From positions 5,472,001-5,536,000 of the forward strand of contig OZ245046.1 of NCBI GenBank assembly GCA_965224245.1: a stretch of 64,000 nucleotides of DNA. The letters run 5' to 3'. Source of the stretch: Candidatus Eiseniibacteriota bacterium (GTDB taxonomy: Bacteria; Eisenbacteria; RBG-16-71-46; CAZAMP01). The notes under the pieces are model-generated. The model had not been told where the DNA came from and searched no databases. It worked only from the letters and a program-made list of their open reading frames with translations. This document shows, in pieces, positions 3,617 to 53,516 of the stretch. Position numbers and translations under genes: made by a program. Within the stretch, counting starts at the first letter, position 1. The number at the start of each line of letters is the position of its first letter.

Positions 3617-5100
3617 CGGTTCGACCTCTCGGGCGGGAGCGCGAGCTCGGTGACGAGCTCGTGCGTTCGTGGGCTCCGGAACGCCGAGCGCGCATCCTCC
3701 TCGAGCGTGAGCTCGGCCACGGTGCGCGACGCGAAGTTCGCGTTCAGGAGACGGCTCGTCAGCGCCTCGGGATCGCGCGCCAGGCTCTCACGGAGCACGA
3801 CGACCCGACGTCCCGACACGAGGGCCTCTCCGATCGCCCGTGCGATGCGGACCGCCTCCTCGCGCGGGGCCGCGACCGCCGGGTCGTGCCGGGGCACGAT
3901 CAGCTCGCGTCGCGTGTAGTAGGCGACGAAGGGTGCCATGCGATCGGCCAGCACGGCGGTCGTCGCCGGCGTCTCGGCGTCGATCCAGCTCGCCAGCGTC
4001 CTGGGGCCGGAGACCCGCGACCGGAGCTGCATCGCTGGCCATGCATCGACGAGCGGGACGATGATCAGACCCAGGACGCCGATCGCGACCGCGGCCGGCC
4101 GGGCGCGCGCCAGCGCGCCGCCGCCCAGCACGTCGGTGAGCCCGCGCGCCACCAGGAGCGAGAGCACGGCGGCGGGCAGCGCGAGCGAGCGCGGAAAGAG
4201 CTCCCCGGCGAGGAACGCGTGCACGAGCGCGACGCCGGTCCACGCGGCGAGGATCCGGAGCATCCGGCCGCCGTGAGCGACCGCGATCGCCGCGAGACCG
4301 AGCCCGATCGGAAGCACCGCGCGGGCGAGATCCCCGGCCCCCGGAGCGAGGTCGTGGAGCGAGGGAAGGCCGGTCGATCCGAACATCGCGCTCGGGCTCG
4401 CTCCCGGCCCGAGCCGTCCACCGAGCATGGCCACGACGGCGGCGACGAACGCGATGGCGAACGCACCGAACGGCCGGGGCGCGGCGGGCTCCCGGACGAG
4501 GAGGACGAGACCCACCGTCGCCGACGCGAGCCACGTCGTGGGGAGCGTCAGCATCGCGCCGGCGGCCAGCGCGGCGGCCAGGAGCCCATGGCGGAGGTGG
4601 ACGTCGGGGGCCATCACCATGCCCAACGCACCGAGCACCAGCGCGATCGCGAGCGAGTGTCCCGACGCGGCGGTGGCCTCGGCGACCAGCAGCGGATTGG
4701 CCCCCACCAGGAGCGCCACCCCCGAAGCGATCGGATGCCCGGCTCCCAGCACCCGCGCCAGCCGGTACGCTGCCAGCACGGCCAGCGAGCCGAACAGCGC
4801 CCCGCTGGCGATGAGCGCTCGCTCGAGGTCCATGCCGAGCGCGCTCGTCAGGCTCGCCACCGCACGGCTCGCGGCCACGAGGAGCGGGCCCGGGTGCGAC
4901 GATGCACCGGCGATCCAGCCGATCGGATCGCCACCGCTGCTCGAGACCACGCGCGAGGCGAGCGCCACCTCGTCGGGGTGCACGAAGCCCGCGTGACCCG
5001 CGGCCAGGTACCCGAGGAGGGTCCCCAGTGTGATCGCGATCGGGACGGCGACGTCGCTGGCGACACGCCGCCCGGGAGTCTCGCTCGCGCCCGTCGCCAA
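3613..5100 (-). CDS. Polytopic membrane protein, probable GT-C (PMT/ArnT-like) glycosyltransferase
   Basis: 'HPDE' acidic motif after TM1, about 11 hydrophobic helices, soluble C-terminal domain; 4-bp overlap with the downstream GT-C gene. Confidence 0.6.
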   Translation of the reverse strand: MATGASETPGRRVASDVAVPIAITLGTLLGYLAAGHAGFVHPDEVALASRVVSSSGGDPIGWIAGASSHPGPLLVAASRAVASLTSALGMDLERALIASGALFGSLAVLAAYRLARVLGAGHPIASGVALLVGANPLLVAEATAASGHSLAIALVLGALGMVMAPDVHLRHGLLAAALAAGAMLTLPTTWLASATVGLVLLVREPAAPRPFGAFAIAFVAAVVAMLGGRLGPGASPSAMFGSTGLPSLHDLAPGAGDLARAVLPIGLGLAAIAVAHGGRMLRILAAWTGVALVHAFLAGELFPRSLALPAAVLSLLVARGLTDVLGGGALARARPAAVAIGVLGLIIVPLVDAWPAMQLRSRVSGPRTLASWIDAETPATTAVLADRMAPFVAYYTRRELIVPRHDPAVAAPREEAVRIARAIGEALVSGRRVVVLRESLARDPEALTSRLLNANFASRTVAELTLEEDARSAFRSPRTHELVTELALPPERSNR

Positions 5101-5422: not shown

Positions 5423-6076
5423 ATGTCAGGAGGTTCACCCATCGCATCCCTAGCCCGGGTCGCGCTCTTGACCGACGACACACGAGATCCCGGCGTCCCG
5501 CCGGTCGAGCGTACGGTTCCGGTTCTGGAATCGTCGCTCCAGCTGATCACGCGTGCCCGTCAGGGCGACTCCGTGGCCGTGGATCGACTCTGCGCGCGCT
5601 ACCTGCCCCGGCTTCGCCGCTGGGCGACCGGGCGGATGCCCAGGAAGTCGCGCGGGCTCCTCGACACCGACGATCTCGTCCAGAACACGCTCCTGCGCAC
5701 CGTCCGTCGCCTCGGGGACTTCGAGACCAGTCACCCGGGTGCGTTCCAGGTCTACGTGCGGCAGGTGCTGATCAATCAGATTCGCGATCTCGGTCGACGC
5801 GGCGCGCGCCGGCCCGACGAGGACGAGCTGATCGAGGAGATCGACGATCCGGGGCCGTCTCCGCTGGAGGCCGCCATCGGATCGGACATGGTCGAGCGCT
5901 ACGAGGCCGCCCTCGCGCGACTCGAGCCCGCCGCGCGAGAAGCCATCGTCGCTCGCGTGGAGATGGGCTGGTCGTACGCGCAGGTGGCCGAGGTACTGGG
6001 GAAACCGTCGGCCGACGCGGCTCGCATGACCGTTGCGCGTGCGCTGTCGCGGCTGGCCGAGGAAATGGACGTGTGA
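5423..6076 (+). CDS. ECF RNA polymerase sigma factor (module 1)
   Basis: Region 2 'LITRARQGD...RYLPRLRRWA...DTDDLVQ' and region 4 'REAIVARVEMGWSYAQVAEVLG...ARMTVARAL'. Start uncertain (ATG 5423 or TTG 5468); the ORF-track 5030 start is over-extended. Confidence 0.9.
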   Translation: MSGGSPIASLARVALLTDDTRDPGVPPVERTVPVLESSLQLITRARQGDSVAVDRLCARYLPRLRRWATGRMPRKSRGLLDTDDLVQNTLLRTVRRLGDFETSHPGAFQVYVRQVLINQIRDLGRRGARRPDEDELIEEIDDPGPSPLEAAIGSDMVERYEAALARLEPAAREAIVARVEMGWSYAQVAEVLGKPSADAARMTVARALSRLAEEMDV

Positions 6077-6079
6077 ACC

Positions 6080-7870
6080 ATGCGTGACGAGGGCTTCCTG
6101 GACGTCGCCGCGACCATCTCCGATGGTGCCGGGATCGAGTGGTCGGTCATCGAGGGACGGGCGCGCTCCGACGACGAGCGCCGGCACCTGCGCCGGCTGC
6201 GTCTGGTCGACGACATCGTCACGTTTCATCGCGTGTGGCAGAGCCAGGTGGACGAGCTCGGCGATCCGATCGACGCGACCTCGCCGGACGCGCCGAGCTA
6301 CGACGCGACGTGGGGCCCGCTGGGTCTCCTGGAGCGGATCGGGCAGGGATCGTTCGGCGTCGTGTATCGCGCGTGGGATCCCAAGCTCGAGCGTGAGGTC
6401 GCGCTGAAGCTCTCGCCCGCCGGCGCCGATCCGGCGCGTGCGGCGACGATCTCCCGCGAGGGACGCCGGCTGGCCCGCGTCGATCACCCCAACGTGGTCA
6501 CGGTGTACGGCGCCGCCGACGACGACGGCCGCGCCGGGATCTGGATGGAGCTGATCGACGGGATCACGCTTCAGGACCAGGTCAAGCGCGACGGACCGAT
6601 GAGCGAGCGCGAGGTGATCGCGATCGGTCAGGACCTGTGCGGCGGGCTCGCCGCGATCCACGGCGCCCGGCTCCTGCATCGCGACATCAAGGCGGCGAAC
6701 GTCATGCGCGAGCGCGGCGGGCGCATCGTGCTGATGGATCTCGGATGCGGCCTGGACACGCCCACCGGGGTGGCGCCGGCCGCCCGTGACGCGCGGAGCA
6801 CGTCGTCGATCTCGGGCACGCCGATGTACATGGCGCCCGAGCTGTTCGACGGCGCCGAGGCGAGCTTCCGGAGCGACGTCTACGGACTCGGCATGCTCCT
6901 GTACTTCCTCGCCACCGGAACGTACCCGGTCGAGGCGATCACGCTGGGTCAGCTCACCGACGCGCTGAAGCGCGGAGAGCAGCGCCGGCTGCGCGACGTG
7001 CGCCCCGATCTGTCGTACACGTTCGTGCAGGTGATCGAGCGCGCGATCGCGCTGGATCCCGCCGGTCGGTACGCGTCGGCCGGCGAGCTGGACGACGCGC
7101 TGGGTCGCGTGCTCTCGTCCGATCTCGATCGATCGGGACGCGCCGCGACGCTCGAGACACCGGCACCCACCGGGTCTCCCGCGCCCACCGATCGTCCTGC
7201 GCGCCGTGGACGGATCGCGACCCTCGCGCTCGCGGCGGCGGTCGTGGCCGCCATCGTGCTCTGGCGATGGGCACCCTGGGCGTCCGGCTACGTCGTCGAC
7301 GCCACGTTCTATCGTCAGCTCCCGTCGGGTGCGGTCGAGGCGCTCGCGATGAACGATCGCGTGCAGCCGAAGGAGCAGTTCCTGATGCGCGCCGAGCTGT
7401 CCGACGAGACATGGGTCTACGTGATCAACCAGGACGATCACGGCGAGTCGTACCTGCTCTTCCCCATGCCGGGGCTCGAGCAGACGAACCCGCTTCCGGC
7501 CGGACGGCACGAGCTGCCCGGCGTGTGGCTCGGCGAATCGATCCGGTGGCAGTTCTCCTCCGCGGGAGGTCGCGAGCGGCTGCTCCTGGTGACCTCGCCG
7601 GAGCCGCTCACCGACTTCGAAGGCGCGCTGGCGGCACTGCCTGCGCCGCGCGCCGACGGCGAGCTCCGCGCCGCGCAGCTCTCGCCCGAGAGCGTGCGCC
7701 GGCTGCGCGGGGCGGGTGCCATCGCGCGCCATGCGCCCGGGGCGGCGAGCGCGCCGCCGGAGATCCTCGAGATGGCCGAGCCGCTGACCGGGCGCGAGCG
7801 CTCGTCGGGGCTGCGGGTCCGCGAGATCGTGCTGGAGAACCCGGTAGATCCGCAGGGAGACGGCCGGTAG
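6080..7870 (+). CDS. Membrane Ser/Thr kinase with C-terminal extracytoplasmic DUF4384-like domain
   Basis: GQGSFG, VALK, HRDIKAAN, DLG and APE motifs; TM 'IATLALAAAVVAAIVLW'; tail 'DRVQPKEQF...WVYVINQDDHGESYLLFP...GRERLLLVTS'; starts 3 bp after the sigma stop. Confidence 0.9.
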   Translation: MRDEGFLDVAATISDGAGIEWSVIEGRARSDDERRHLRRLRLVDDIVTFHRVWQSQVDELGDPIDATSPDAPSYDATWGPLGLLERIGQGSFGVVYRAWDPKLEREVALKLSPAGADPARAATISREGRRLARVDHPNVVTVYGAADDDGRAGIWMELIDGITLQDQVKRDGPMSEREVIAIGQDLCGGLAAIHGARLLHRDIKAANVMRERGGRIVLMDLGCGLDTPTGVAPAARDARSTSSISGTPMYMAPELFDGAEASFRSDVYGLGMLLYFLATGTYPVEAITLGQLTDALKRGEQRRLRDVRPDLSYTFVQVIERAIALDPAGRYASAGELDDALGRVLSSDLDRSGRAATLETPAPTGSPAPTDRPARRGRIATLALAAAVVAAIVLWRWAPWASGYVVDATFYRQLPSGAVEALAMNDRVQPKEQFLMRAELSDETWVYVINQDDHGESYLLFPMPGLEQTNPLPAGRHELPGVWLGESIRWQFSSAGGRERLLLVTSPEPLTDFEGALAALPAPRADGELRAAQLSPESVRRLRGAGAIARHAPGAASAPPEILEMAEPLTGRERSSGLRVREIVLENPVDPQGDGR

Positions 7871-7898
7871 GCCGCTCGCCGGATCGTGTCGGACGGGC

Positions 7899-7907
7899 AT
7901 GGTAGAA
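7899..7907 (+). promoter_or_regulatory. Possible extended -10 sigma70 promoter (TGGTAGAAT)
   Basis: TGn-TAGAAT about 40 bp upstream of ATG 7948. Confidence 0.3.
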
Positions 7908-7947
7908 TCGACCATCCCGCGCAACGACGAAAGGCACGGAACAATTC

Positions 7948-9582
7948 ATGACATCTGGCTTCGCACCTTCATCGGCGATCTGGCGCCCGCGACATCGGCA
8001 ACCCGCGTGGTGGTTCTCGGCCATCGGCGGCGCTCTCGCGCTCGCGTGTCTCGGCGCCACGCCGGTCATCGCCGGGCTCGGCGACACCGGCTCGGCCGGT
8101 ACGCTGCCCGACGACGGGGAGGGCGCCGGCGCGGAGGGGGCCGACCGGGATCCCGACGACACGACGACCGGCGTCTGCGGAACCGTGAACAGAAGCGGCG
8201 GCGAGCCCGGCGCCTGGATCTGGATCGTACCCGACGACGAAGTGGTCCAGACCTCCGAGCTGAAGGGCTCCGAGAAGGAGGATTGCTCCGAGGCGTGCGA
8301 CGTGGCGTTCGGTCGATCGTGCGCATCCTCGCGACTGGGGAGCCCCGTGAACGGGAGCGATCCCGGTGGACGGCGCGGTGCGGACGAGCCCGGCGCCGGC
8401 ATTCTCGAGACGTACCTCCTCGTCGTCGGGTCGTACCAGGACCCGGGCGTTCAGCCCCAGCCCGTCGTGTGGGAGAGCCCGACGTCGGCGCCGCCGTTCA
8501 CCGCGAAGACGCTGGACACGCTCGCCGGCGGCGAAGGCCAGGCGCACGCCGTCGTCAAGGCGGACGACGTCTGGTGGATCGGCGGCGACACGAAGGGACC
8601 GGCGGGCTGTGTCCGCCCCTGCGTGTGGACACGTCAGTGCGAGGACGGGCCCTGGATCCTGACCGTGCTGCCGGTCCCGGCCGGAAGCTGCGAGGCCTCG
8701 GTGCGCGACGTCTTCGACTTCGGACCGGCCGGCGTCGGCGCCGTGGGCTACGCCGACGACGCCAAGGGCGTCAGGATCCCGTTCCTCTGGCGCTACGCCG
8801 CCGGCGCGTGGACCCCCGATCCGCTTCCGGTGCCGGGTGATCTGCCCGGGCGGGCCATCGCGGGATTCTGGCGATCGGGACGAGCTCAGATCGTGGGACA
8901 CGTCGACTGCACGCTGCCGAGCTCGTGCGGGGGGCTCCTCTGGGACTGGACACCCGGCGGAGGGGCCACCGTGACGCCGCTGGATCCGACGCTGGGTCCG
9001 ATCTACCGGCCGACCGACATCCTGCCCTACGGACCGACCTGCGGCGTGATCATCACGGGCACGGTCCTGACCGGCACGGGCATGCTCGCCGAGCGCATTC
9101 CGGTTCTCCAGTACGCGCGGTGCGCCCCCGGCGGCGTCCTCGACCCGGTCGACCTGAACGCGCTCCTCTCGGAGCCGTACGACGGCGTCCTCCGCACGGC
9201 CGACGCGATCACGGCCGGCGGGCACGTGTACGTGACCGGTGACGCCACCACGACCGGCGGGCCGAGCTTCGGCAACGCGTATCTGTGGACGTCCGACGCG
9301 CTACTCGACGCCCCGGACGTCGTGGCGGTGGCGCCACTCATCGCGGCGACTCCCAACCCGGTGCGCCGGAGTGTCCGGCTCACGCTGCCCGAGGGAGCGG
9401 CCGGCGCCGACGTCCGCGTCTTCGACGCCGGCGGGCGCGTCGTGCGCGAGCTCGCCGGAGGCCGCGTCCGCGCCTGGGATCGGACCGATAGCGCTGGCCG
9501 TCGCGTACCCGATGGGGTCTACTTCGTCAGAGCGACCTGGCCGTCCGGCGTCTCGACGGCCAAGCTCGTCGTCGACGACTAG
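7948..9582 (+). CDS. Secreted Cys-containing protein with propeller-like repeats and FlgD-Ig/T9SS-like C-terminal domain
   Basis: Signal-like N-terminus; repeats 'TLDTLAGGEGQAHAV', 'VLPVPAGSCEASVRDV', 'PLPVPGDLPGRAIA'; C-terminus 'PNP...VRVFDAGGRVVR...WDRTDSAGRRVPDGVYFVR'. Confidence 0.75.
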   Translation: MTSGFAPSSAIWRPRHRQPAWWFSAIGGALALACLGATPVIAGLGDTGSAGTLPDDGEGAGAEGADRDPDDTTTGVCGTVNRSGGEPGAWIWIVPDDEVVQTSELKGSEKEDCSEACDVAFGRSCASSRLGSPVNGSDPGGRRGADEPGAGILETYLLVVGSYQDPGVQPQPVVWESPTSAPPFTAKTLDTLAGGEGQAHAVVKADDVWWIGGDTKGPAGCVRPCVWTRQCEDGPWILTVLPVPAGSCEASVRDVFDFGPAGVGAVGYADDAKGVRIPFLWRYAAGAWTPDPLPVPGDLPGRAIAGFWRSGRAQIVGHVDCTLPSSCGGLLWDWTPGGGATVTPLDPTLGPIYRPTDILPYGPTCGVIITGTVLTGTGMLAERIPVLQYARCAPGGVLDPVDLNALLSEPYDGVLRTADAITAGGHVYVTGDATTTGGPSFGNAYLWTSDALLDAPDVVAVAPLIAATPNPVRRSVRLTLPEGAAGADVRVFDAGGRVVRELAGGRVRAWDRTDSAGRRVPDGVYFVRATWPSGVSTAKLVVDD

Positions 9583-9668
9583 GACCCGCCGAGCACGCCC
9601 GACGTCTCACGGGGTCCGCGCGATTCAGGGGGTGGCGTTCGCCGCTCCCGCACCCCCGGGAGCGCTCG

Positions 9669-12600
9669 GTGCCGCGCGACAGAGCCCACTCCGATCGATT
9701 CCCCAGCTTCGACGGCGCGTGCGGGTCATGCGCCGCCTTCGGCGCGGGGCTCCTGGCCCTGGCCACGACCCTCGCCGGGTCGGCGTCGGCCGAGTGCACG
9801 CTGAGCGCGTCCGACGCGGCCCGCGTCACGCAGCTCGAGGATGCGGTCGAGCGCCACGTCACCACGGCACGCTTCGACTCCGCCAGCGTGGCGGCGGAGG
9901 AGATCGAGACGCTGTGGTCGCGGGCCGACGTCGCGGGCATGCCGTGCGGTCCCGCGATCGAGTGGCGCTGGGAGCACGACGCCTACCGGACCGTGGCCGG
10001 GCTGGACGCACCGGACCGCGAGCGGTTCGCCCGCTCGTCCGGGGAGCTGCGACACGCCATCGCGCTCCAGCGCGGGAGTCACACCGACAGCGCCGTCGTC
10101 ATCTTCGAGAGCATCGCGTCGCTCTACTCCCGCACGCTCGGTCCCGGCCATCCGTGGACGGCGCAGGTCGACGGGCGGCTCGCGCTGGCGCTTCACGCCG
10201 ATCGGCGTCCCGACGAGGCGCTGCCCATCGCGTACCGGTACCTCGACGGGCTGGTGTCCGCGTACGGAGAAGAGCACGTGGAGGTCGCGAAGGCGGAGTA
10301 CAACGTCGCCCGCATCGAGCGGGCGCTCGGACACTTTCCCGACGCCGAGGCACTCCTACGGTCGTCGCTGGCCCGGCGCGAGCGACTCTTCGGGGCCGAC
10401 GGCGCCGGTGTCGTGGTGGCGCTGACCGCGCTGGCCGACGTGTTGAAGGAGCTCGGCCGATACGCCGAGGCGGCGCCCCTGGCCCGGCGATCGGTGGCGA
10501 TCCGTCGAGCCGAGTACGGCGACGACCACCCGCGGGTCGCCACCGGGCTCAACGGGCTCGGAACGATCCTGGAGGCGCTCGGCGAGTATCGAGAGGCCGA
10601 GCGCGCGTATCGCGAGGCGCTGGCCATTCGCGAGGCGTCGCTGGCCGCGGAGGATCCCGGCATTGCCTACGTGCTCCGGAATCTCGCGATCACGCTTCAG
10701 CGACAGGGACGGTTCACCGAGGCGGCGGCGCTGCTGGCCCGCTCGATCTCGATCGCGGAGGCGGCCTGGGGACGGGACGACGATCGCGTGGCCCGGCACG
10801 TGCGATCGCTCGCGCTGGTGTACGCGGCGCTCGGCGACCACGAGCGGGCCGAGGCGCTCGATCGTGAGGTGATCGCCACGCTGCGCCGGGCCCTCGGCGA
10901 CGAGCATCCCGAGGTGGCCAAGACGCTCCTGAACCTCGTCGACGCGCTCGTGCCCCAGAGACGACATGCCGAGGCGATGACCGTGCTGGACGAGGCGATC
11001 GAGATCGGACGCCGCCCGAACGCCTCGCGCGTCCATCTCGCGACGAGCCTGATGATGAAGGGTGTGCTCCTCCGGCGCGACCATCGTCTCGACGAAGCCG
11101 AGGTCGCGGTCGAGGAGGCGCTCGGCATCCTGCGCGAGCAGGTGGACGCCGACCATCCGCTGGTGGCGCAGACTCTGGAGTCGCTAGGGGGGCTGGCCCG
11201 CGCTCGCGGTGACTACCGGACCGCGTTGACGTTTCTGACGCAGGCCACCGAGGCGAGGCGCGCGCGGCTCGGTCCCGAGCACCAGCGCGTGGCATCGGGG
11301 CTTCTCGCATCCGCGCTGTGTCATCTCGGGCTCGGCGAGGGCGACGCGGCATACCGGGACGCGGCCGAGGCCGAGGAGGTGGCCCGCGATCATCTCGCGC
11401 TGATGAGCTCGGCGACGTCGGAGGCTCTCGCGCTCGCGTACGCCGACACACGCACGTCGGGGCTGGATCTCATGACGACGCTGGCGGTGGAGCCGGTGAC
11501 CGAGCACGGCGATCCTCCGACCCCGTCGGCCGACATCGCCCGTCAGGCCCGCGTATCCGCGACGTGGGATGCGATCGTCCGCTCGCGAGGACTCGTCGTG
11601 GACGCGATGGCGGCCCGACAGCGGCGCGCGTTCGAGACCGCGTCGGACCGGGTCCGTTCGCTCGTCTCCGAGCTGGCCGATGCGCGCGAGCAGCTGGCCA
11701 ACCTGGCCTTCACGAACGTCGACGAGGTGGAGGAGGATGTGTACCGGCGCTCGCTGGCCGCGGCTCGCTCGCGCCGGCGCGAGGCCGAGGAGGCGCTGAC
11801 GCGCGAGATGGGCGCGGTGCCGGGCGCGGTGGCCGACGTGGGTCTCGCGGACGTCCGCGCGGGGCTCCCGGCCGACGGCGCGCTGGTGGCGTACTGGCGC
11901 TACGAGCGGGCCGATGCGCGGCCGGATGCACCACGTGAGCCGAGGATCGGCGCGTTCGTTCTCGCGGGACCCGATCGCGCCCCGCGCGCGATCGACCTCG
12001 GTCCCGAGCGCGCGATCGACGACGCGGTCCGGGCCTGGCGCGCGACGCTCGTGGACGCCGCCACGCGATCCGACCTCGCCGGCGCCGAGGACGACCACCG
12101 CCGTGCATCGCGACGGCTGGCCGAGCGGATCTGGGATCCGATCCGGCGCGACGTCGCGGACGCCGGACACGTCTTCGTCGTGCCGGACGGCGCCGTGCTG
12201 GTCGTGAACCTCGCGGCGCTGGTCGGTCCCGACGGACGGTACCTCGTCGAGAGCGAGACGCCGCTGACGACGCTGGGCGTCGAGCGGGACCTCGTCGACG
12301 CCCCGGGCGAGAGCGCCGGGGGGCTTCTCCTCGTCGGGGATCCCGACTACGGAGAGGCGCTGGTCACGGTCTCGCCCGGCGGGTCGGCGACGCCCGCCGA
12401 CCGGACGGACGCGCCGGGCTTCGCGCCGCTCCCGGGGACCCGGGTCGAGGTGGAGACGATCGCAGGGCTGTGGGACGCCCCCGAGGATCTGGTCGTGCTG
12501 ACCGGCGCCGACGCCACCGAGGCCGCCTTCAAGCGCGCGGCACCGCGGTTCGGCCTGCTCCACGTGGCGACGCACGGGTTCTTTCTCGATGCCGGGACCA

Positions 12601-13109
12601 CCCGTCGCGAGGGGCTCCGCGGCGCCGGCGAGATCGCCGTCGCGTCCTCGTCGAGCCGCCCTCGGCGCGCGCCACGGAGCCCGCTCCTCCGGTCGGGGCT
12701 CGTCCTGGCCGGCGCGAACGCACGCGGAGAGCGGGACGGCGACGCCGACGACGGCATCCTGACCGCCGAGGAGATCGCCGGGCTCGATCTGGCCCGGGTC
12801 GGGTGCGTGGTGCTGTCGGCGTGCGACACCGGGCTGGGAGAGGTGCGGGCCGGCGAGGGGGTCTTCGGCCTGCGGCGGGCGTTTCGCATCGCCGGCGCGC
12901 ACGGGGTGGTCATGAGCCTGTGGCCGGTGGACGACACGGCGACAGAGGCGTGGATGCGCGCCTGGTATCGCGCCCGGCTCGACGACCGGGTGGGCATGAC
13001 GGAGGCGGTACGGGTCGCGTCACGGTCGGTGATCCGCGATCGCCGCGCGCGGGGGGAGAGCACGCACCCGTTTCTGTGGGGTGCGTTCGTCGGCGTCGGG
13101 CGCGAGTGA
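9669..13109 (+). CDS. TPR-CHAT (caspase-like, clan CD) protease with signal-peptide-like N-terminus
   Basis: Kinesin-light-chain-type TPRs ('GDDHPRVATGLNGLG', 'GDEHPEVAKTLLNL'); catalytic His 'HVATHGF' and Cys 'VLSACDTGLG'; 'SLWPVDD'; 'HPFLWGAFV'; hydrophobic 'FGAGLLALATTLAGSASA'. Confidence 0.93.
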   Translation: MPRDRAHSDRFPSFDGACGSCAAFGAGLLALATTLAGSASAECTLSASDAARVTQLEDAVERHVTTARFDSASVAAEEIETLWSRADVAGMPCGPAIEWRWEHDAYRTVAGLDAPDRERFARSSGELRHAIALQRGSHTDSAVVIFESIASLYSRTLGPGHPWTAQVDGRLALALHADRRPDEALPIAYRYLDGLVSAYGEEHVEVAKAEYNVARIERALGHFPDAEALLRSSLARRERLFGADGAGVVVALTALADVLKELGRYAEAAPLARRSVAIRRAEYGDDHPRVATGLNGLGTILEALGEYREAERAYREALAIREASLAAEDPGIAYVLRNLAITLQRQGRFTEAAALLARSISIAEAAWGRDDDRVARHVRSLALVYAALGDHERAEALDREVIATLRRALGDEHPEVAKTLLNLVDALVPQRRHAEAMTVLDEAIEIGRRPNASRVHLATSLMMKGVLLRRDHRLDEAEVAVEEALGILREQVDADHPLVAQTLESLGGLARARGDYRTALTFLTQATEARRARLGPEHQRVASGLLASALCHLGLGEGDAAYRDAAEAEEVARDHLALMSSATSEALALAYADTRTSGLDLMTTLAVEPVTEHGDPPTPSADIARQARVSATWDAIVRSRGLVVDAMAARQRRAFETASDRVRSLVSELADAREQLANLAFTNVDEVEEDVYRRSLAAARSRRREAEEALTREMGAVPGAVADVGLADVRAGLPADGALVAYWRYERADARPDAPREPRIGAFVLAGPDRAPRAIDLGPERAIDDAVRAWRATLVDAATRSDLAGAEDDHRRASRRLAERIWDPIRRDVADAGHVFVVPDGAVLVVNLAALVGPDGRYLVESETPLTTLGVERDLVDAPGESAGGLLLVGDPDYGEALVTVSPGGSATPADRTDAPGFAPLPGTRVEVETIAGLWDAPEDLVVLTGADATEAAFKRAAPRFGLLHVATHGFFLDAGTTRREGLRGAGEIAVASSSSRPRRAPRSPLLRSGLVLAGANARGERDGDADDGILTAEEIAGLDLARVGCVVLSACDTGLGEVRAGEGVFGLRRAFRIAGAHGVVMSLWPVDDTATEAWMRAWYRARLDDRVGMTEAVRVASRSVIRDRRARGESTHPFLWGAFVGVGRE

Positions 13110-48870: not shown

Positions 48871-51801
48871 TCAGTCGGGGTCGCCGATGAGGATGAACGG
48901 CGCCCAGTAGTAGGGGTGCGCAAACCGCTGGTGACCCTCGGAGTCACGACGCTCGCGAAGCCAGCGCTTGGCGCGGCGGAGCGCTTCGGCCTTGCCCGGA
49001 GCCCCGTCGTGGTCGGGCGCGCGGCCGAGCCAGATCTCGTAGAAGCGCGTCATGAGGAGCGCGGTCGCGCGATCGTCGACCCGCCACAGGCTGACGAGGA
49101 CGCTACGCGCCCCCGCTTCCAGAAACGCGTGCGCGAAGCTGATCAGTCCCTCGCCCGCGATCTCCGGCCCGACTCCCGTCCGGCACGCACCCAGCGTCAC
49201 GAGATCGGCGTCCAGCTTCCAGTCCCTGGAGATCTCGTCGACGGTCACGACGCCGCGGTGCGCCCGGCGACCGGAGAGAACGGCTTCCAGCGGATCGTCC
49301 AGGTCGTGCTGGGCCAGCACGAGCACGGACCGCTCCGGGAACGTCTCGTCCACGATCGCGTGGGTGGCGAAGTGCAGGACACCGAACGTCCGGAGCGCGT
49401 CCCGTTCGGCCAGCTCGACCAGCGCGCGCTCGGTCGCGGCGGGGCCCACGAGCATCTCGCGACGCGGGAACGACGGCGCAATGAGCGCGATCTCGTCGGC
49501 CGACGCCGCAAGCCTGGGCAGACTGGACCGAAGGCGGGGATCGGGACCGCGCGCGAGGAGCTCCGGGTCGCCGTCCGGCTCCGCGGCGGAGTCCGGTGCC
49601 GGACCGAACGGCGGATCCGCCACCAGAAGTGCCGGACGCTCCGACGGCGCGCGGCCGGTGCGCGCGGTCTCCCGGAGGTGCGTGTGGACCGTGGCCGAGG
49701 GCGTGTACGCGCTCGCCAGCCGGTCGACGAGCGCGGTGCCGTCGGCGTCGACCAGAGCGTCGATCGGCGCGAACGACATGGCGCCCGAGCCCACGATCAC
49801 GATCGACCGCACGCCGTCGAGAGCGTCGCCGAGCGGCTCCAGGCGTTCGGCCCACCACGAGCGTGCGATCGGGGTCGTGGTCGAGTCCGGCGGCCCGAGC
49901 GCCATTCCCGCCTCGTCCTCGATCGCCGCGCGAAGCGGAGACCGTGTCCCGGATCCGTCGCACGGGATGCGTCTCCAGTCGACGTCACCCCGCCGGCGAA
50001 TCACGTAGCTCCATACCTCCGGCGGCTGGTGGCGCGGTCGAACCTCGAGCCAGCCCAGCACGGCCTCGTGCGGACCCAGCGAGGCTTGAACCCGCTCCAG
50101 AGGGAAGGGCCGGTCGATCGACAGCCCGAGGGCGGTCGAGCCCGTGGTCTCGGCGCGGTCGGACATGACCTCCAGGAGCTCGTTCCGGAGCGTTCGCAGC
50201 TGCTCGCGCACGGCCGGATCCTCCCGGTCAGGAGACTCCAGGAGCGCGGCGTGCTGCGTCTCGAGCCGGCGGTGCCGGAGCCGGAGCGCACGATCCCGCT
50301 CTCGTGCATGCTCGGGAACGACCGGGATGCGGCCCCCCAGGAGATGATCGGCGGCAACGCGTCCCACGGCGCGCTCGGCATCGTCCCAGGCCGTGCGCGC
50401 CCTGGCGCGTGATCTCGCACCGCCCTTGCGCAGCGCCAGCGCCGCGAGTCGGGAGTACGGCTCCTGTGCCGTCACCGCCCGCATCACACCGCTGGCGATC
50501 ATGCGGCGTCGCAGCTCGAAGCGAGGCACGTAGGCCGAGAGGACGTCCGTGGCCTCGTCCACTCGGTCCTGAGCCGCGAGCACGTCCGCGAGATCGATCG
50601 CGTTGCGATCCGGGGGACTCGCGCGCCGGTCGCCGAGCTCGAGCGCCTTCCGGAGGTGGGCCTCGGCCCGGGACAGATCCCCTCCACACCAGTGGGCGCG
50701 CGCCAGGACGTAGTGCGCGTGCTCCATCGACGGGTGATCGGGTCCGTACATCTCGAGGTTTCTCTCGAACGCCTCGCGTGCCCAGACCAGCGCCGACGGA
50801 TCGCCGAGCCCGGCGAGCGCGGCCGAGCGGCTGGACAGGCAGGCGGTGACGTGCGGCGACGAGTCGGGGTAGTTGGCGCGAGCGAAGCTCAGCGCCCGCT
50901 CGTACCACGCGTGGCTGGCCTCCCGATCGCCGAGGGCGCCCGTGCAGATCCCGAGGGTCGTCATAACGCGGAGATACGCGTTCGGGAGCTGATCGGGCCG
51001 TTCGTCGAGAACGCGAAAGGCCTCCTCGGCCCACTCTCGACCGCGTCCCCAGTCGCGCAGGGTCGATGCGGTTCCGGCCAGGTGCACGAGCACGCTCGCG
51101 CTGAGATGGCTCTGCCCGTGGAGCCGCCGCGACATCGCCAGCGCGCCCAGCATCGGCGCCGTCGACTCCGCGTAGCGGCCGGCCAGCGCCAGGCAGCTCC
51201 CGAGGTTGCGAAGCGCCAGCACCGTCTGCGGATGATCGCCGTATGCGGCACGCCAGATGCGACTAGCCGCCACGAAGTGATCGATCGCCTCGGCGTGCAG
51301 GCCCCAGTCGCGCAGGATCATGCCGAGGTTGGCCCTGGACTCCGCGATTCCGGGATCGTCGGGATCGAGCGTCGCGAGGCGGGCGTCCAGCGTGCGGCGC
51401 GCGGCGATCTCCGCCTCATCGAAGCGCCCCATGTCGAGGTACGCGTTGGAGAGATAATCGAGCGACGTCAGCACGTCGGGATGGCTGCGCCCGAGCCACC
51501 GCTCACGCACGGCGAGCTGCCGCTCGGCGATCGCGGGCACCTCGGAGAATCGCTGGCGCTCGCAGTGCGATTCGATCAGCGGCGTCAGCGCATCGACCTC
51601 CGCCAGCTCCGCACGCGCACTCGCGGCCAGCGCGAGGATCGTCTCCAGCGTCGACACCAGCTCACGCGCCTCGCGACGCTCGTGCGGCCGGCTCCGGGGA
51701 TCGGACTCCAGCGCGGCGAGTCGTTCACGGGCGAGGCGGAGGGCGGTCTGGTAGTCGCCGTCGGCGCGATGCGCCCGGATCCGGTGCCATCGATCGTCCA
51801 T
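48871..51801 (-). CDS. TPR-CHAT (caspase-like) protease, no signal peptide (module 2)
   Basis: TPRs 'LGRSHPDVLTSLDYLS', 'YGPDHPSM'; His 'LHFATHA'; Cys 'VTLGACRTG'; 'SLWRVDD'; 'HPYYWAPFILIG'. Confidence 0.93.
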   Translation of the reverse strand: MDDRWHRIRAHRADGDYQTALRLARERLAALESDPRSRPHERREARELVSTLETILALAASARAELAEVDALTPLIESHCERQRFSEVPAIAERQLAVRERWLGRSHPDVLTSLDYLSNAYLDMGRFDEAEIAARRTLDARLATLDPDDPGIAESRANLGMILRDWGLHAEAIDHFVAASRIWRAAYGDHPQTVLALRNLGSCLALAGRYAESTAPMLGALAMSRRLHGQSHLSASVLVHLAGTASTLRDWGRGREWAEEAFRVLDERPDQLPNAYLRVMTTLGICTGALGDREASHAWYERALSFARANYPDSSPHVTACLSSRSAALAGLGDPSALVWAREAFERNLEMYGPDHPSMEHAHYVLARAHWCGGDLSRAEAHLRKALELGDRRASPPDRNAIDLADVLAAQDRVDEATDVLSAYVPRFELRRRMIASGVMRAVTAQEPYSRLAALALRKGGARSRARARTAWDDAERAVGRVAADHLLGGRIPVVPEHARERDRALRLRHRRLETQHAALLESPDREDPAVREQLRTLRNELLEVMSDRAETTGSTALGLSIDRPFPLERVQASLGPHEAVLGWLEVRPRHQPPEVWSYVIRRRGDVDWRRIPCDGSGTRSPLRAAIEDEAGMALGPPDSTTTPIARSWWAERLEPLGDALDGVRSIVIVGSGAMSFAPIDALVDADGTALVDRLASAYTPSATVHTHLRETARTGRAPSERPALLVADPPFGPAPDSAAEPDGDPELLARGPDPRLRSSLPRLAASADEIALIAPSFPRREMLVGPAATERALVELAERDALRTFGVLHFATHAIVDETFPERSVLVLAQHDLDDPLEAVLSGRRAHRGVVTVDEISRDWKLDADLVTLGACRTGVGPEIAGEGLISFAHAFLEAGARSVLVSLWRVDDRATALLMTRFYEIWLGRAPDHDGAPGKAEALRRAKRWLRERRDSEGHQRFAHPYYWAPFILIGDPD

Positions 51802-52124
51802 GCGTGGCGCTTCTCCGGGCTGGCGGCCAACCTGAGATCGGCATCCGGCGGGCGCCGGCGCCGGACCCGTACCCATCCATGGTACTGCATCTCCCGCGGC
51901 GAGACGTCGATCGGGACCCGCGCGCGGTCACACCGGGCCACGCGGAGCGACCTCGGAACGTGGCGCCGGCGTGCCGGTCCGGCGCGGTCGCGCACGAGGA
52001 GACCCTTGGAGGTGTCGTGTCGGCGACGATGGCGGTCGCGAGTAGCGGTCCCCGCGATTATGCTCTGAGGGTTGGGCGGCCGGTTGCCGCGCGTACCGAA
52101 CCTCCGACGAACGAGCGACGGACG

Positions 52125-52688
52125 ATGCACGACGCGACCCGAGCGGACAGCACCGGAATCGACTGGGGAGAGATCCGCGCGCTGGCGCGGCGCCGTCTGG
52201 AGGTCCTGATCGACGCGCGCGACCGCGACGACCTCGACGATCTCGTGCAGGAGATCTGCATCCGGTATCTCCGGGTGGCCCGTCGCGAGGGCATCGATGA
52301 TCCCGACGGGCTGGTCATGACGCTGGCCCGACGCACACACGTCGATCACATCCGTCGCGGCCTGCGCATTCGCCGCCGATCCGAGGCGCTCGAGCGCGAG
52401 TACGACGCGGCACCCGTGCCGTCGGCCGCCGGCGTCCCCGATCCGCTGGGAAGCCTCATCGATCGCCTCCCGCTGATCGTGCAGGAGGTGTTCCGCGAGC
52501 ACGGACGCGACGAGTGCGTCGAGCTCCTGAACCTCTTCTGCTCCGGACGACCCTGGAGCCAGGGGGCGGCCGAGCGGGGCGTGGCGCCACCCACACTGCG
52601 GAAGCGATGGTCTCGCTGCCTCGACATCGCGCGCTCGGCGCTGTCCGCCGACCCGTTGCTGGCCGAGCACGTCCGGAGCGGAGGCTGA
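52125..52688 (+). CDS. ECF sigma factor (module 2)
   Basis: 'DDLDDLVQEICIRYL', 'ARRTHVDHIRR', region-4-like 'WSQGAAERGVAPPTLRKRWSRCL'. Confidence 0.75.
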   Translation: MHDATRADSTGIDWGEIRALARRRLEVLIDARDRDDLDDLVQEICIRYLRVARREGIDDPDGLVMTLARRTHVDHIRRGLRIRRRSEALEREYDAAPVPSAAGVPDPLGSLIDRLPLIVQEVFREHGRDECVELLNLFCSGRPWSQGAAERGVAPPTLRKRWSRCLDIARSALSADPLLAEHVRSGG

Positions 52689-52691
52689 CCC

Positions 52692-53516
52692 ATGGACGAG
52701 CATGCGGTGACGGAACGCCTCCTCGTGGCCTATCGCCTCGGGCTGCTCGACGATGCGTCGCGTGAGGCCGTGTGTGACCACCTGGCCACGTGCGACGCCT
52801 GCTCCGAGCTCGAGACCGAGATCGCCACACGCCTGGGCGAGGACGCCACCGTCGACCGGCACGTGAGCCCGACGATGCTGGTCGGCTGGCCGATGGCGGT
52901 GATCTCGCTGACCGGCCTCGAGCGGCGTGCCGTGTCGGCGCACCTACGGCGGTGTGCCGACTGCCGGGACGATCTCCGGCGTCTGGGATACGATCCCGTG
53001 CTGTCGGACGCGTCCGCCCTCGAGGTGGCGGCCACCTCACGCGAGCCGGGATGGCTCGCGCGCGCGGTGAACGCGGTCGCGGCGTTGCCGCTGTCTCCGC
53101 TTCCGGTCAACCCGTCGCGCGGTGCGGCCGGTGACGAGGCCGAGGCGGCGATGTGGCGGGGACTCGACCGGTACCGATCGGGCGACTACGCGGCGGCCGT
53201 GCGCGAGCTCGCCGCCGCGGGAGACGCCGCGCACGACCGGCCGGAGGTGCGACTCTACGAGGGGTCGGCGCGGCTCCTGTGCGGTGATCTCGCCGGGGCG
53301 CGCTCGGCGCTCACGGCCGGGGCGTCCGGGGCGCTCGAGGGATCGCGCGTCGAGCGAGAGATCGGCTGGCTTCTCGCGATGGTGCAGATCGCGTCCGGCC
53401 GGTTCGAGGCGGCCGCGGACCAGCTGCGATCGTTGACCGGGTCCGGGGACCGGGCCCAGGAGGCGCGCGAGACGCTGGACGCGCTCGTCGGGCTGAGGCT
53501 GGTGTCCGAGGCATGA
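52692..53516 (+). CDS. Anti-sigma factor with two zf-HC2 motifs and C-terminal TPR
   Basis: 'HLATCDAC' and 'HLRRCADC'; TPR-like 'GLDRYRSGDYAAAVREL...RLYEGSARLLCGD'; 3 bp after the sigma stop; no clear TM helix. Confidence 0.8.
   Translation: MDEHAVTERLLVAYRLGLLDDASREAVCDHLATCDACSELETEIATRLGEDATVDRHVSPTMLVGWPMAVISLTGLERRAVSAHLRRCADCRDDLRRLGYDPVLSDASALEVAATSREPGWLARAVNAVAALPLSPLPVNPSRGAAGDEAEAAMWRGLDRYRSGDYAAAVRELAAAGDAAHDRPEVRLYEGSARLLCGDLAGARSALTAGASGALEGSRVEREIGWLLAMVQIASGRFEAAADQLRSLTGSGDRAQEARETLDALVGLRLVSEA

Follow-up and report, generated by a model that had tools for sequence, protein, structure and literature searches.

The window analysed here is a 64,000-nt stretch of DNA from a Candidatus Eiseniibacteriota bacterium, to which all coordinates refer unless a locus label is given. 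On its forward strand, genes for a sigma factor of the extracytoplasmic function (ECF) class, a receptor Ser/Thr kinase and an exported protease built of TPR repeats and a CHAT domain are arranged, in this order, in what reads as a single operon. The kinase and the protease carry the same short arginine-containing motif, the kinase in its C-terminal tail and the protease in a loop between its catalytic residues, and the motif recurs at these two places across a family of such proteins. The genes and elements concerned are the following (TM, transmembrane; AF2, AlphaFold2):

5522–6076, forward strand: ECF sigma factor gene (Pfam Sigma70_r2, Sigma70_r4_2 and Sigma70_ECF), aligning with the sigma factor genes 5' of paralogous kinases
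6080–7870, forward strand: receptor Ser/Thr kinase of 596 aa, from the translation; Pfam Pkinase 135.4 bits (cut-off 31.7)
7703–7726, forward strand: kinase tail motif LRGAGAIA (R543-G544), residues 542–549, after the TM segment and DUF4384 and 48–55 residues from the C-terminus
7811–7837, forward strand: C-terminal strand LRVREIVLE, a strand in the AF2 model; family consensus GVWVRQxxLENP, with conserved ends
9669–13109, forward strand: putative exported TPR-CHAT protease of 1146 aa (Pfam CHAT 208.6 bits, TPR_12 253 bits), start codon uncertain
12573–12575, forward strand: codon of the catalytic His969 (HVATHG), invariant in 47 of 47 CHAT domains
12585–12680, forward strand: disordered loop insert, aa 973–1004, subfamily-specific and directly after the catalytic His-Gly
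12615–12638, forward strand: CHAT loop motif LRGAGEIA (R984-G985), residues 983–990, between the catalytic His and Cys
12822–12824, forward strand: codon of the catalytic Cys1052 (LSACDTG), invariant in 47 of 47 CHAT domains

The start codon of the sigma factor gene is uncertain (its frame is open from 5030), and the kinase gene lies directly downstream. The kinase translation contains the Hanks-type catalytic motifs HRDIKAAN, DLG and APE and runs from a kinase domain (aa 84–332) through a TM segment (about aa 378–400) to an extracytoplasmic DUF4384 domain (PF14326, aa 432–509) and then the tail. DUF4384 scored 25.1 bits when the protein was searched with hmmscan (cut-off 27) and 29.6 bits, above the cut-off, in a genome search, and it reaches 38.8–58 bits in the paralogous kinases. 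The protease comprises a signal-peptide-like N-terminus, TPR_12 repeats and a CHAT domain at aa 812–1144 (PF12770, cut-off 24 bits). From the TM segment of the kinase and the N-termini of the proteins, read by eye, we infer that both motif copies lie outside the cytoplasm.

The original prediction had located LRGAGAIA in the kinase C-terminus and LRGAGEIA between HVATHG and SACDTG, and re-translation recovered both copies at these positions. The two octamers are identical at seven of eight residues, and only two of these seven are encoded by the same codon, so that copying at the DNA level is, as had been argued, ruled out by codon use. The CHAT copy lies 15 residues past His969 and is the best match, within the window CHAT protein, of a matrix derived from the kinase tails. 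The two window proteins do share the earlier LRGAGxIA pattern, while a commoner consensus, RG[IV]GG[LVM], had been overlooked: aligned with its relatives, the window motif is a local diverged copy of a family consensus L-R-G-[IV]-G-G-[LVM].

Taken alone, the match within the window pair is not significant, because shuffled sequences and other ORFs of the genome often match as well. Shuffling the two proteins 400 times produced an ungapped 7/8 match in 43 cases. In a pseudo-proteome of 4470 long open reading frames (ORFs) with a high GC content at third codon positions (1,934,366 residues; the genome has 68.6% GC), the CHAT protein matched 270 of the 4469 other ORFs at this level, and 72 of the 1043 with 450–750 aa. 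LRGAG is not enriched in this pseudo-proteome (12 seen vs 16 expected), and neither is LRG[AV]G, the null suggested with the original prediction (18 seen vs 28 expected). The longer pattern LRGAGxIA was confined to the kinase and CHAT ORFs (2 seen vs 0.08 expected). The earlier caveat that L, R, G and A are common residues therefore holds for the single pair, but background frequency fails to explain the motif family-wide; it is the comparative evidence, from paralogues, orthologues, the matrix and a global library, that makes both copies members of one conserved motif.

The same genome encodes three further kinases with this tail and six close CHAT paralogues, and in two other operons (L001 and L002) the sigma factor, kinase and CHAT genes are directly adjacent. 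In the motif columns of the alignments, the paralogous kinases carry RLRGIGGLS, HRGVGGLT and RRSIGGLG, and the CHAT loops TRSIGGLS, TRGLGGLT, RRGIGGVA and RRAVSGLT. The string common to both members of a pair is RSIGGL in L001, RGIGG in L002 and RGAGxIA in the window. In a fourth operon (L004), a DUF4384 protein lacks both the kinase domain and the tail motif, and the loop of its CHAT is also without a good motif.

Members of the family were detected with a tail profile in 18 of 41 related genomes and, at E ≤ 1e-20, in 83 of 206 genomes of the class, a tally that includes genome G083, which is absent from the fetched loci. Stop-to-stop ORFs from 93 loci of other genomes, the window and L001–L007 (101 sources) yielded 98 kinase tails and 57 CHAT ORFs; two of the 57 CHAT ORFs, without a recognisable HxxxHG, and three of the 98 kinase matches, without a gap-free motif window, were left out before counts. 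The pattern R-[GSAH]-[IVLMAT]-[GAST] stands 35–75 residues from the C-terminus in 94 of 98 kinase tails, and R-[GSA]-[IVLMA]-[GAST] stands 9–24 residues past His-Gly in 50 of the 55 CHAT ORFs with a recognisable His motif; conservation in kinase/CHAT pairs, on which the original prediction had hung its motif, is thus borne out. R543 and G544 (among 88 aligned ectodomains) and R984 (among 47 aligned CHAT domains) are each at least 90% conserved.

When a matrix of ten columns, built from kinase tails only, was scanned over whole CHAT ORFs, its best match fell 12–17 residues past His-Gly in 45 of 55 proteins of about 1000 residues each. Over the pseudo-proteome, its top three matches were two kinases and one CHAT. 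Other high matches in the genome, such as a 663-aa ORF (C1:1679796) and a 1176-aa ORF without HxxxHG (C1:5644432), resemble chance matches or conserved motifs unrelated to this one and were set aside. An ectodomain profile retrieved 812 proteins (clusters at 50% identity) at E ≤ 1e-30 from a library of 1.84 billion representatives; among the best 150 of these, 133 carry an exact RG[IVLM]G within the last 95 residues and the other 17 are one-residue variants, the motif Arg lying 40–59 residues (median 50) from the C-terminal end. A further locus from a metagenome-assembled genome, L136, pairs LRGVGGVSP with LRGVGGVEP. Across the 206 genomes of the class, the kinase and the CHAT subfamily occur together in 75, the kinase only in 8, the CHAT only in 29 and neither in 94, by a count made by hand that includes G083 and in which related genomes are not independent.

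The motifs of partners also resemble each other more than those of non-partners. At 42 loci a kinase could be paired with a CHAT, encoded downstream on the same strand in 35 cases, upstream in 3 and on the opposite strand in 4; CHAT ORFs with their best matrix match outside the loop were excluded from pairing. Over positions R+1 to R+10, partners share 215 of 420 residues vs 153 ± 7 after re-pairing, and none of 20,000 permutations, which ignore phylogeny, reached 215. Reduced to a single pair for each of 20 clusters at 55% identity, the set gave 93–100 identities vs 67–69 ± 4.5 (0 of 5000). By position, partner matches (n = 42) were 32 vs 16.5 expected at +2, 28 vs 22.0 at +4, 24 vs 11.8 at +5, 13 vs 5.2 at +7 and 13 vs 3.9 at +8. 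Matches extend to +8 in L106, L091, L127 and L071, as in the kinase/CHAT strings RGVGELADAP/RGVGELADAA (L106), RGIGGMAPAP/RGIGGMAPAG (L091) and LRGVGGMVPM/LRGVGGMVPL (L071).

More robust than this naive permutation is a test of rare derived states. Where a kinase has, at +1 to +5, a residue found in at most 2 of the 42 kinases, its own CHAT has the same residue in 6 of 18 cases vs 0.49 expected (P 1.2e-5); as one sister pair is among the six, they amount to five events. At +1, the rare state present in both partners is S (L001); at +2 it is A in the window and M in L097, and at +4 it is L in L067 and L077 and E in L106. The co-variation between partners that the original prediction had proposed to look for is therefore present, with weaker results in the phylogenetically corrected tests discussed below. 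Moreover, an orphan kinase (L003:3726-6173) and an orphan CHAT (L006:533-3967), about 540 kb apart in the same genome, have RxVxGLTPSAG in common: eight of the ten residues after the Arg are alike, vs one to five when the L003 kinase is compared with other CHATs, which suggests that the two are partners though not adjacent. Gene conversion or recent DNA copying as the source of such likeness was rejected, because partners use the same codon at 134 of 282 identical residues and non-partners at 4000 of 8794, an equal level. As codon identity is no higher in partners, their likeness is kept at the protein level.

Structure prediction places both motif copies at or in disordered segments. In the AF2 model of the CHAT domain (mean predicted local distance difference test score, pLDDT, 84.9), a coil at model residues 183–214, corresponding to aa 973–1004, follows right after the strand bearing the His; block pLDDT in this loop is 51–69 and falls below 50 exactly at RGAG. 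A Foldseek search with the model gave Csx29 (7y9x_B) as the best match (E 2.7e-11), then DdvA (8rot_A; 1.1e-10, 20% identity) and, further down, separase (5fc2_B; 8.6e-7) and gingipain R (8.1e-5). A profile of the 47 CHAT domains had no match among PDB sequences at E ≤ 0.01, and the link to solved CHAT enzymes comes through the fold search only. The spacing of the catalytic residues is 83 in the window CHAT vs 40–59 in distant CHAT paralogues of the genome, among them a second TPR-CHAT in the window (48874–51876), which have neither insert nor motif; by this comparison, the loop insert is specific to the kinase-linked CHAT subfamily. These enzymes look active in that His and Cys are invariant throughout the aligned set, as far as sequence can tell.

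In the ectodomain model (pLDDT 81.1), a beta-sandwich is predicted in which a helix ends at the R-G of the motif, residues 145 to 172 fall below a pLDDT of 50, and a confident last strand at 179–187 (LRVREIVLE, block pLDDT 91) packs back onto the ectodomain. A fold search with this ectodomain gave no match at E ≤ 0.001, only generic Ig-like sandwiches. Complex prediction for the CHAT domain with the ectodomain scored 0.42 (runs 0.42, 0.00 and 0.46), the best of three controls scoring 0.01; of 80 solved complexes 58 reach the mark set for this score, as do 2 of 110 mismatches, but only 7 of the 80, and both mismatches, do so at a score of at most 0.60. With the runs agreeing in at least 6% of contacts and a partner pLDDT of at least 69, the prediction lends weak support to binding.

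Many CHAT domains of the subfamily also carry a pair of cysteines: one stands about 8 residues ahead of the loop Arg, the other about 70 residues upstream, before F..LP.T..E. Both are present in 31 of the 47 domains, neither in 15 and one in 1; the window copy (domain range 12039–13106) has neither. Because the two are present or absent together, they suggest a disulfide, in line with export.

We are highly confident that the motif is real and functionally coupled. As to what it does, we lean, by a narrow preference and by analogy with separase, towards a candidate Arg-small site at which the CHAT protease cleaves or which it holds as a pseudosubstrate. Cleavage between R and G fits because an invariant Arg is followed by a small residue, because the loops are predicted to be disordered and because Arg-specific proteases, separase and gingipain R, are among the fold relatives. 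In this scheme, tail and loop would both bind one site, the substrate cleft of the CHAT domain, where the Arg would occupy P1 and a Gly, Ser or Ala P1'. The loop, which holds the motif 13–17 residues past the catalytic His, would serve the protease as an internal substrate or pseudosubstrate, either a zymogen plug or a place of autocleavage; the substrate in trans would be the kinase tail. In that tail, about 50 residues short of the C-terminus, the motif begins a predicted disordered linker that ties the last beta-strand to the ectodomain; a cut would uncouple the strand and may thereby alter the output of the kinase to the sigma factor. The residues after the Arg could act as an address separating paralogous systems.

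Several observations weigh against such a cleavage site. Caspase-type enzymes usually read the non-prime side, and here tracking is seen C-terminal to the Arg, on the prime side, which a common docking site would explain as readily as a cleavage site would; position −1 shows no tracking (10 of 42 vs 8.3 expected), and the non-prime sides are unlike, [ED]-R-L-R in the kinases vs G-[TLS]-R in the loops. An independent-pairs test on a motif-masked kinase tree was not significant, with only two to three supported pairs per trait, and a sister-swap of CHATs (n = 21) gave 11 better, 6 worse and 4 ties (sign p 0.17, Wilcoxon p 0.039). For only 9 of 14 kinases in five genomes is the neighbouring CHAT strictly the best match, and roughly every second kinase lacks a CHAT within 9 kb, with housekeeping genes often as its neighbours. 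One of the three complex runs scored 0.00, and the prediction as a whole reported no interface. Finally, cleavage by the CHAT enzymes known from craspases occurs after Met or Leu rather than after Arg (PMC11506125).

Among other explanations, a chance match of common L, R, G and A residues in a high-GC proteome would account for the 7/8 matches in shuffles and genome ORFs and for the lack of LRGAG enrichment, but for the family it is hardly credible. The motif is held at fixed positions in tails, in loops and in 150 of 150 global representatives (the 17 one-residue variants included), the kinase-derived matrix finds the CHAT loop and partners match in rare states; the matrix scan, the global library and the tail and loop conservation have already refuted chance. 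Two independent Gly-rich hinges or turns, each serving the folding or flexibility of its own protein and alike through the shared ancestry of operon lineages, would agree with the weak phylogeny-aware tests and with a Gly-rich consensus at order-disorder boundaries. This we consider improbable, given the rare derived states present in both partners, the partner matches extending to +8, the ability of a kinase matrix to pick the loop from proteins of about 1000 residues and the absence of the insert from CHAT paralogues unlinked to these kinases.

More serious, although still unlikely in our view, is a shared docking motif without cleavage, in which tail and loop would be alternative ligands of a non-catalytic pocket, which would lie either on the protease (TPR array) or on the kinase (DUF4384); the CHAT loop would mimic the kinase tail, and competition between them would switch partners by mimicry. 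Such docking stays in play because the tracking residues are prime-side, restricted to R+2 to R+8 as for a docking peptide. Short linear peptides are known ligands of TPR arrays, the last strand of the tail docks on DUF4384 in the ectodomain model, and the complex prediction, which weakly supports binding, gives no site. Yet a docking loop accounts poorly for an insert placed right after the catalytic His at a constant spacing, in enzymes that look active from their invariant His and Cys, and the accessible text on separase presents an invariant Arg with a small residue as a protease-site signature in the clan (PMC10317155).

A more specific form of the cleavage reading is that each CHAT loop carries the address of its cognate kinase at +2, +4, +5, +7 and +8 and that a cut between R and G would unmask the same N-terminus on both proteins. 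This version we hold doubtful. The address would be a self-encoded specificity key insulating parallel protease/kinase/sigma factor pathways, like the specificity residues of two-component systems, and the new N-termini, G-[IV]-G-G-[LVM] on both proteins, would be tethered ligands competing for one pocket, much as the N-termini of caspase-9 and Smac compete for XIAP.

A parallel to a cleavage or pseudosubstrate site is separase: the P1 Arg of its substrate motif is invariant, sites of this type in the protease's own disordered insert undergo autocleavage with fragments that stay attached, a loop of its own (AIL3) occupies the substrate-motif site, and securin acts as a pseudosubstrate (PMC10317155). 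Like the window CHAT, which it matches in fold (5fc2_B), separase is, in that account, a protease bearing its own Arg-type motif in a disordered insert; unlike it, separase is eukaryotic and cytoplasmic or nuclear, has the motif (S/D/E)xExxR, which is read on the non-prime side. The separase insert is not known to lie between the catalytic His and Cys.

In craspases, as far as the accessible text of the preprint goes, the TPR-CHAT protease Csx29 cleaves Csx30 within a flexible linker; Csx30 binds and controls a sigma factor of the ECF type and in one group has DUF4384 as its C-terminal domain (bioRxiv 10.1101/2022.08.17.504292). The window unit likewise combines TPR-CHAT, DUF4384 and an ECF-type sigma factor, and Csx29 is its best fold match. 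The craspase differs, by the same text, in being cytoplasmic, RNA-activated, bound to Cas7-11, without a kinase and cutting after Met or Leu, and that text reports no shared motif in the protease itself (bioRxiv 10.1101/2022.08.17.504292). DdvA of Myxococcus xanthus, as described in the accessible text, fuses a transmembrane anti-sigma factor to a periplasmic TPR-CHAT; self-cleavage has been proposed, the CHAT domain cutting a flexible linker beside the membrane as a signalling step (PMC11506125). On this description, DdvA-DdvS resembles the window unit in coupling an extracytoplasmic TPR-CHAT to an ECF sigma factor. Here, by contrast, the protease is separate and apparently exported, without a zinc anti-sigma domain, and the membrane partner is a Hanks-type kinase with DUF4384; in Pfam terms, the window CHAT protein lacks the fused DdvA architecture, having only the signal-peptide-like N-terminus, TPR and CHAT. 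The His-Cys spacing is 45 in DdvA (H862, C907; PMC11506125) vs 83, with the motif-bearing insert, in the window CHAT.

For ECF sigma factors, the accessible reviews describe ECF43 members (EcfP/PknT, EcfK/PknS) switched by neighbouring kinases, and CHAT neighbours of ECF54 members (PMC8999054, PMC7826278). ECF43 shares with the window unit a sigma factor gene beside a transmembrane Ser/Thr kinase and the lack of a canonical anti-sigma factor, and the same accessible texts describe no protease partner or DUF4384 tail motif for it (PMC8999054, PMC7826278). Compared by region 2.2 alone, ECF43 lacks DAED there, whereas the kinase-linked sigma factors of this genome keep acidic DTDD or DTND. In the three kinase-linked sigma factors compared (window 5522–6076, L001:981-1559 and L002:6140-6772), region 2.2 reads DTDDLVQ or DTNDLVQ, and the conserved Thr is a possible phosphorylation target. 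About 80 residues before the kinase domain (window 6080–6330) are conserved among the paralogous kinases (AATISDGxxIxW...) and could be the part that contacts the sigma factor.

Between the kinase and CHAT genes of the window, one further gene is inserted:

7948–9582, forward strand: secreted 544-aa protein with a FlgD_ig-like C-terminal domain

Judging by the loci compared, this gene is an optional operon member. Secreted proteins ending in FlgD_ig recur beside the kinases or between kinase and CHAT (L004:4145-8326, L101:4150-7074, L121:6615-8930), with bodies that are FG-GAP or DUF5122 propellers in some and without assignment in others. The window holds a second TPR-CHAT gene (48874–51876, reverse strand), divergent from an ECF sigma factor gene (51804–52685) followed by a zf-HC2 anti-sigma factor gene (52692–53513); its stretch from His to Cys has neither the loop insert nor an RG motif. 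The sixth DUF4384 match of the genome, at C1:2406975-2407133 on the reverse strand, falls within an open frame of 691 aa that is not part of the kinase family. No Peptidase_C14 match turned up when the genome was searched for this caspase family.

A literature search that did not cover table S7 of PMC11506125 or figures S13–S14 of the Csx30 preprint returned no paper describing the motif or the three-gene unit, which would be a variant of protease-controlled ECF signalling. In the accessible literature, DdvA is the only characterised bacterial case of an extracytoplasmic CHAT protein, with neither its signal nor its site found (PMC11506125). The present family, of at least 812 clusters at 50% identity, offers a defined, conserved and partner-specific candidate site, in the enzyme as well as in its putative substrate, that is directly testable. 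If the cleavage reading is true, a caspase-like protease would switch a bacterial receptor kinase, the logic of separase, a protease carrying its own substrate motif, would extend to bacterial envelope signalling, and the CHAT/DUF4384/ECF sigma factor triad of type III-E CRISPR systems would be linked to a much larger non-CRISPR family.

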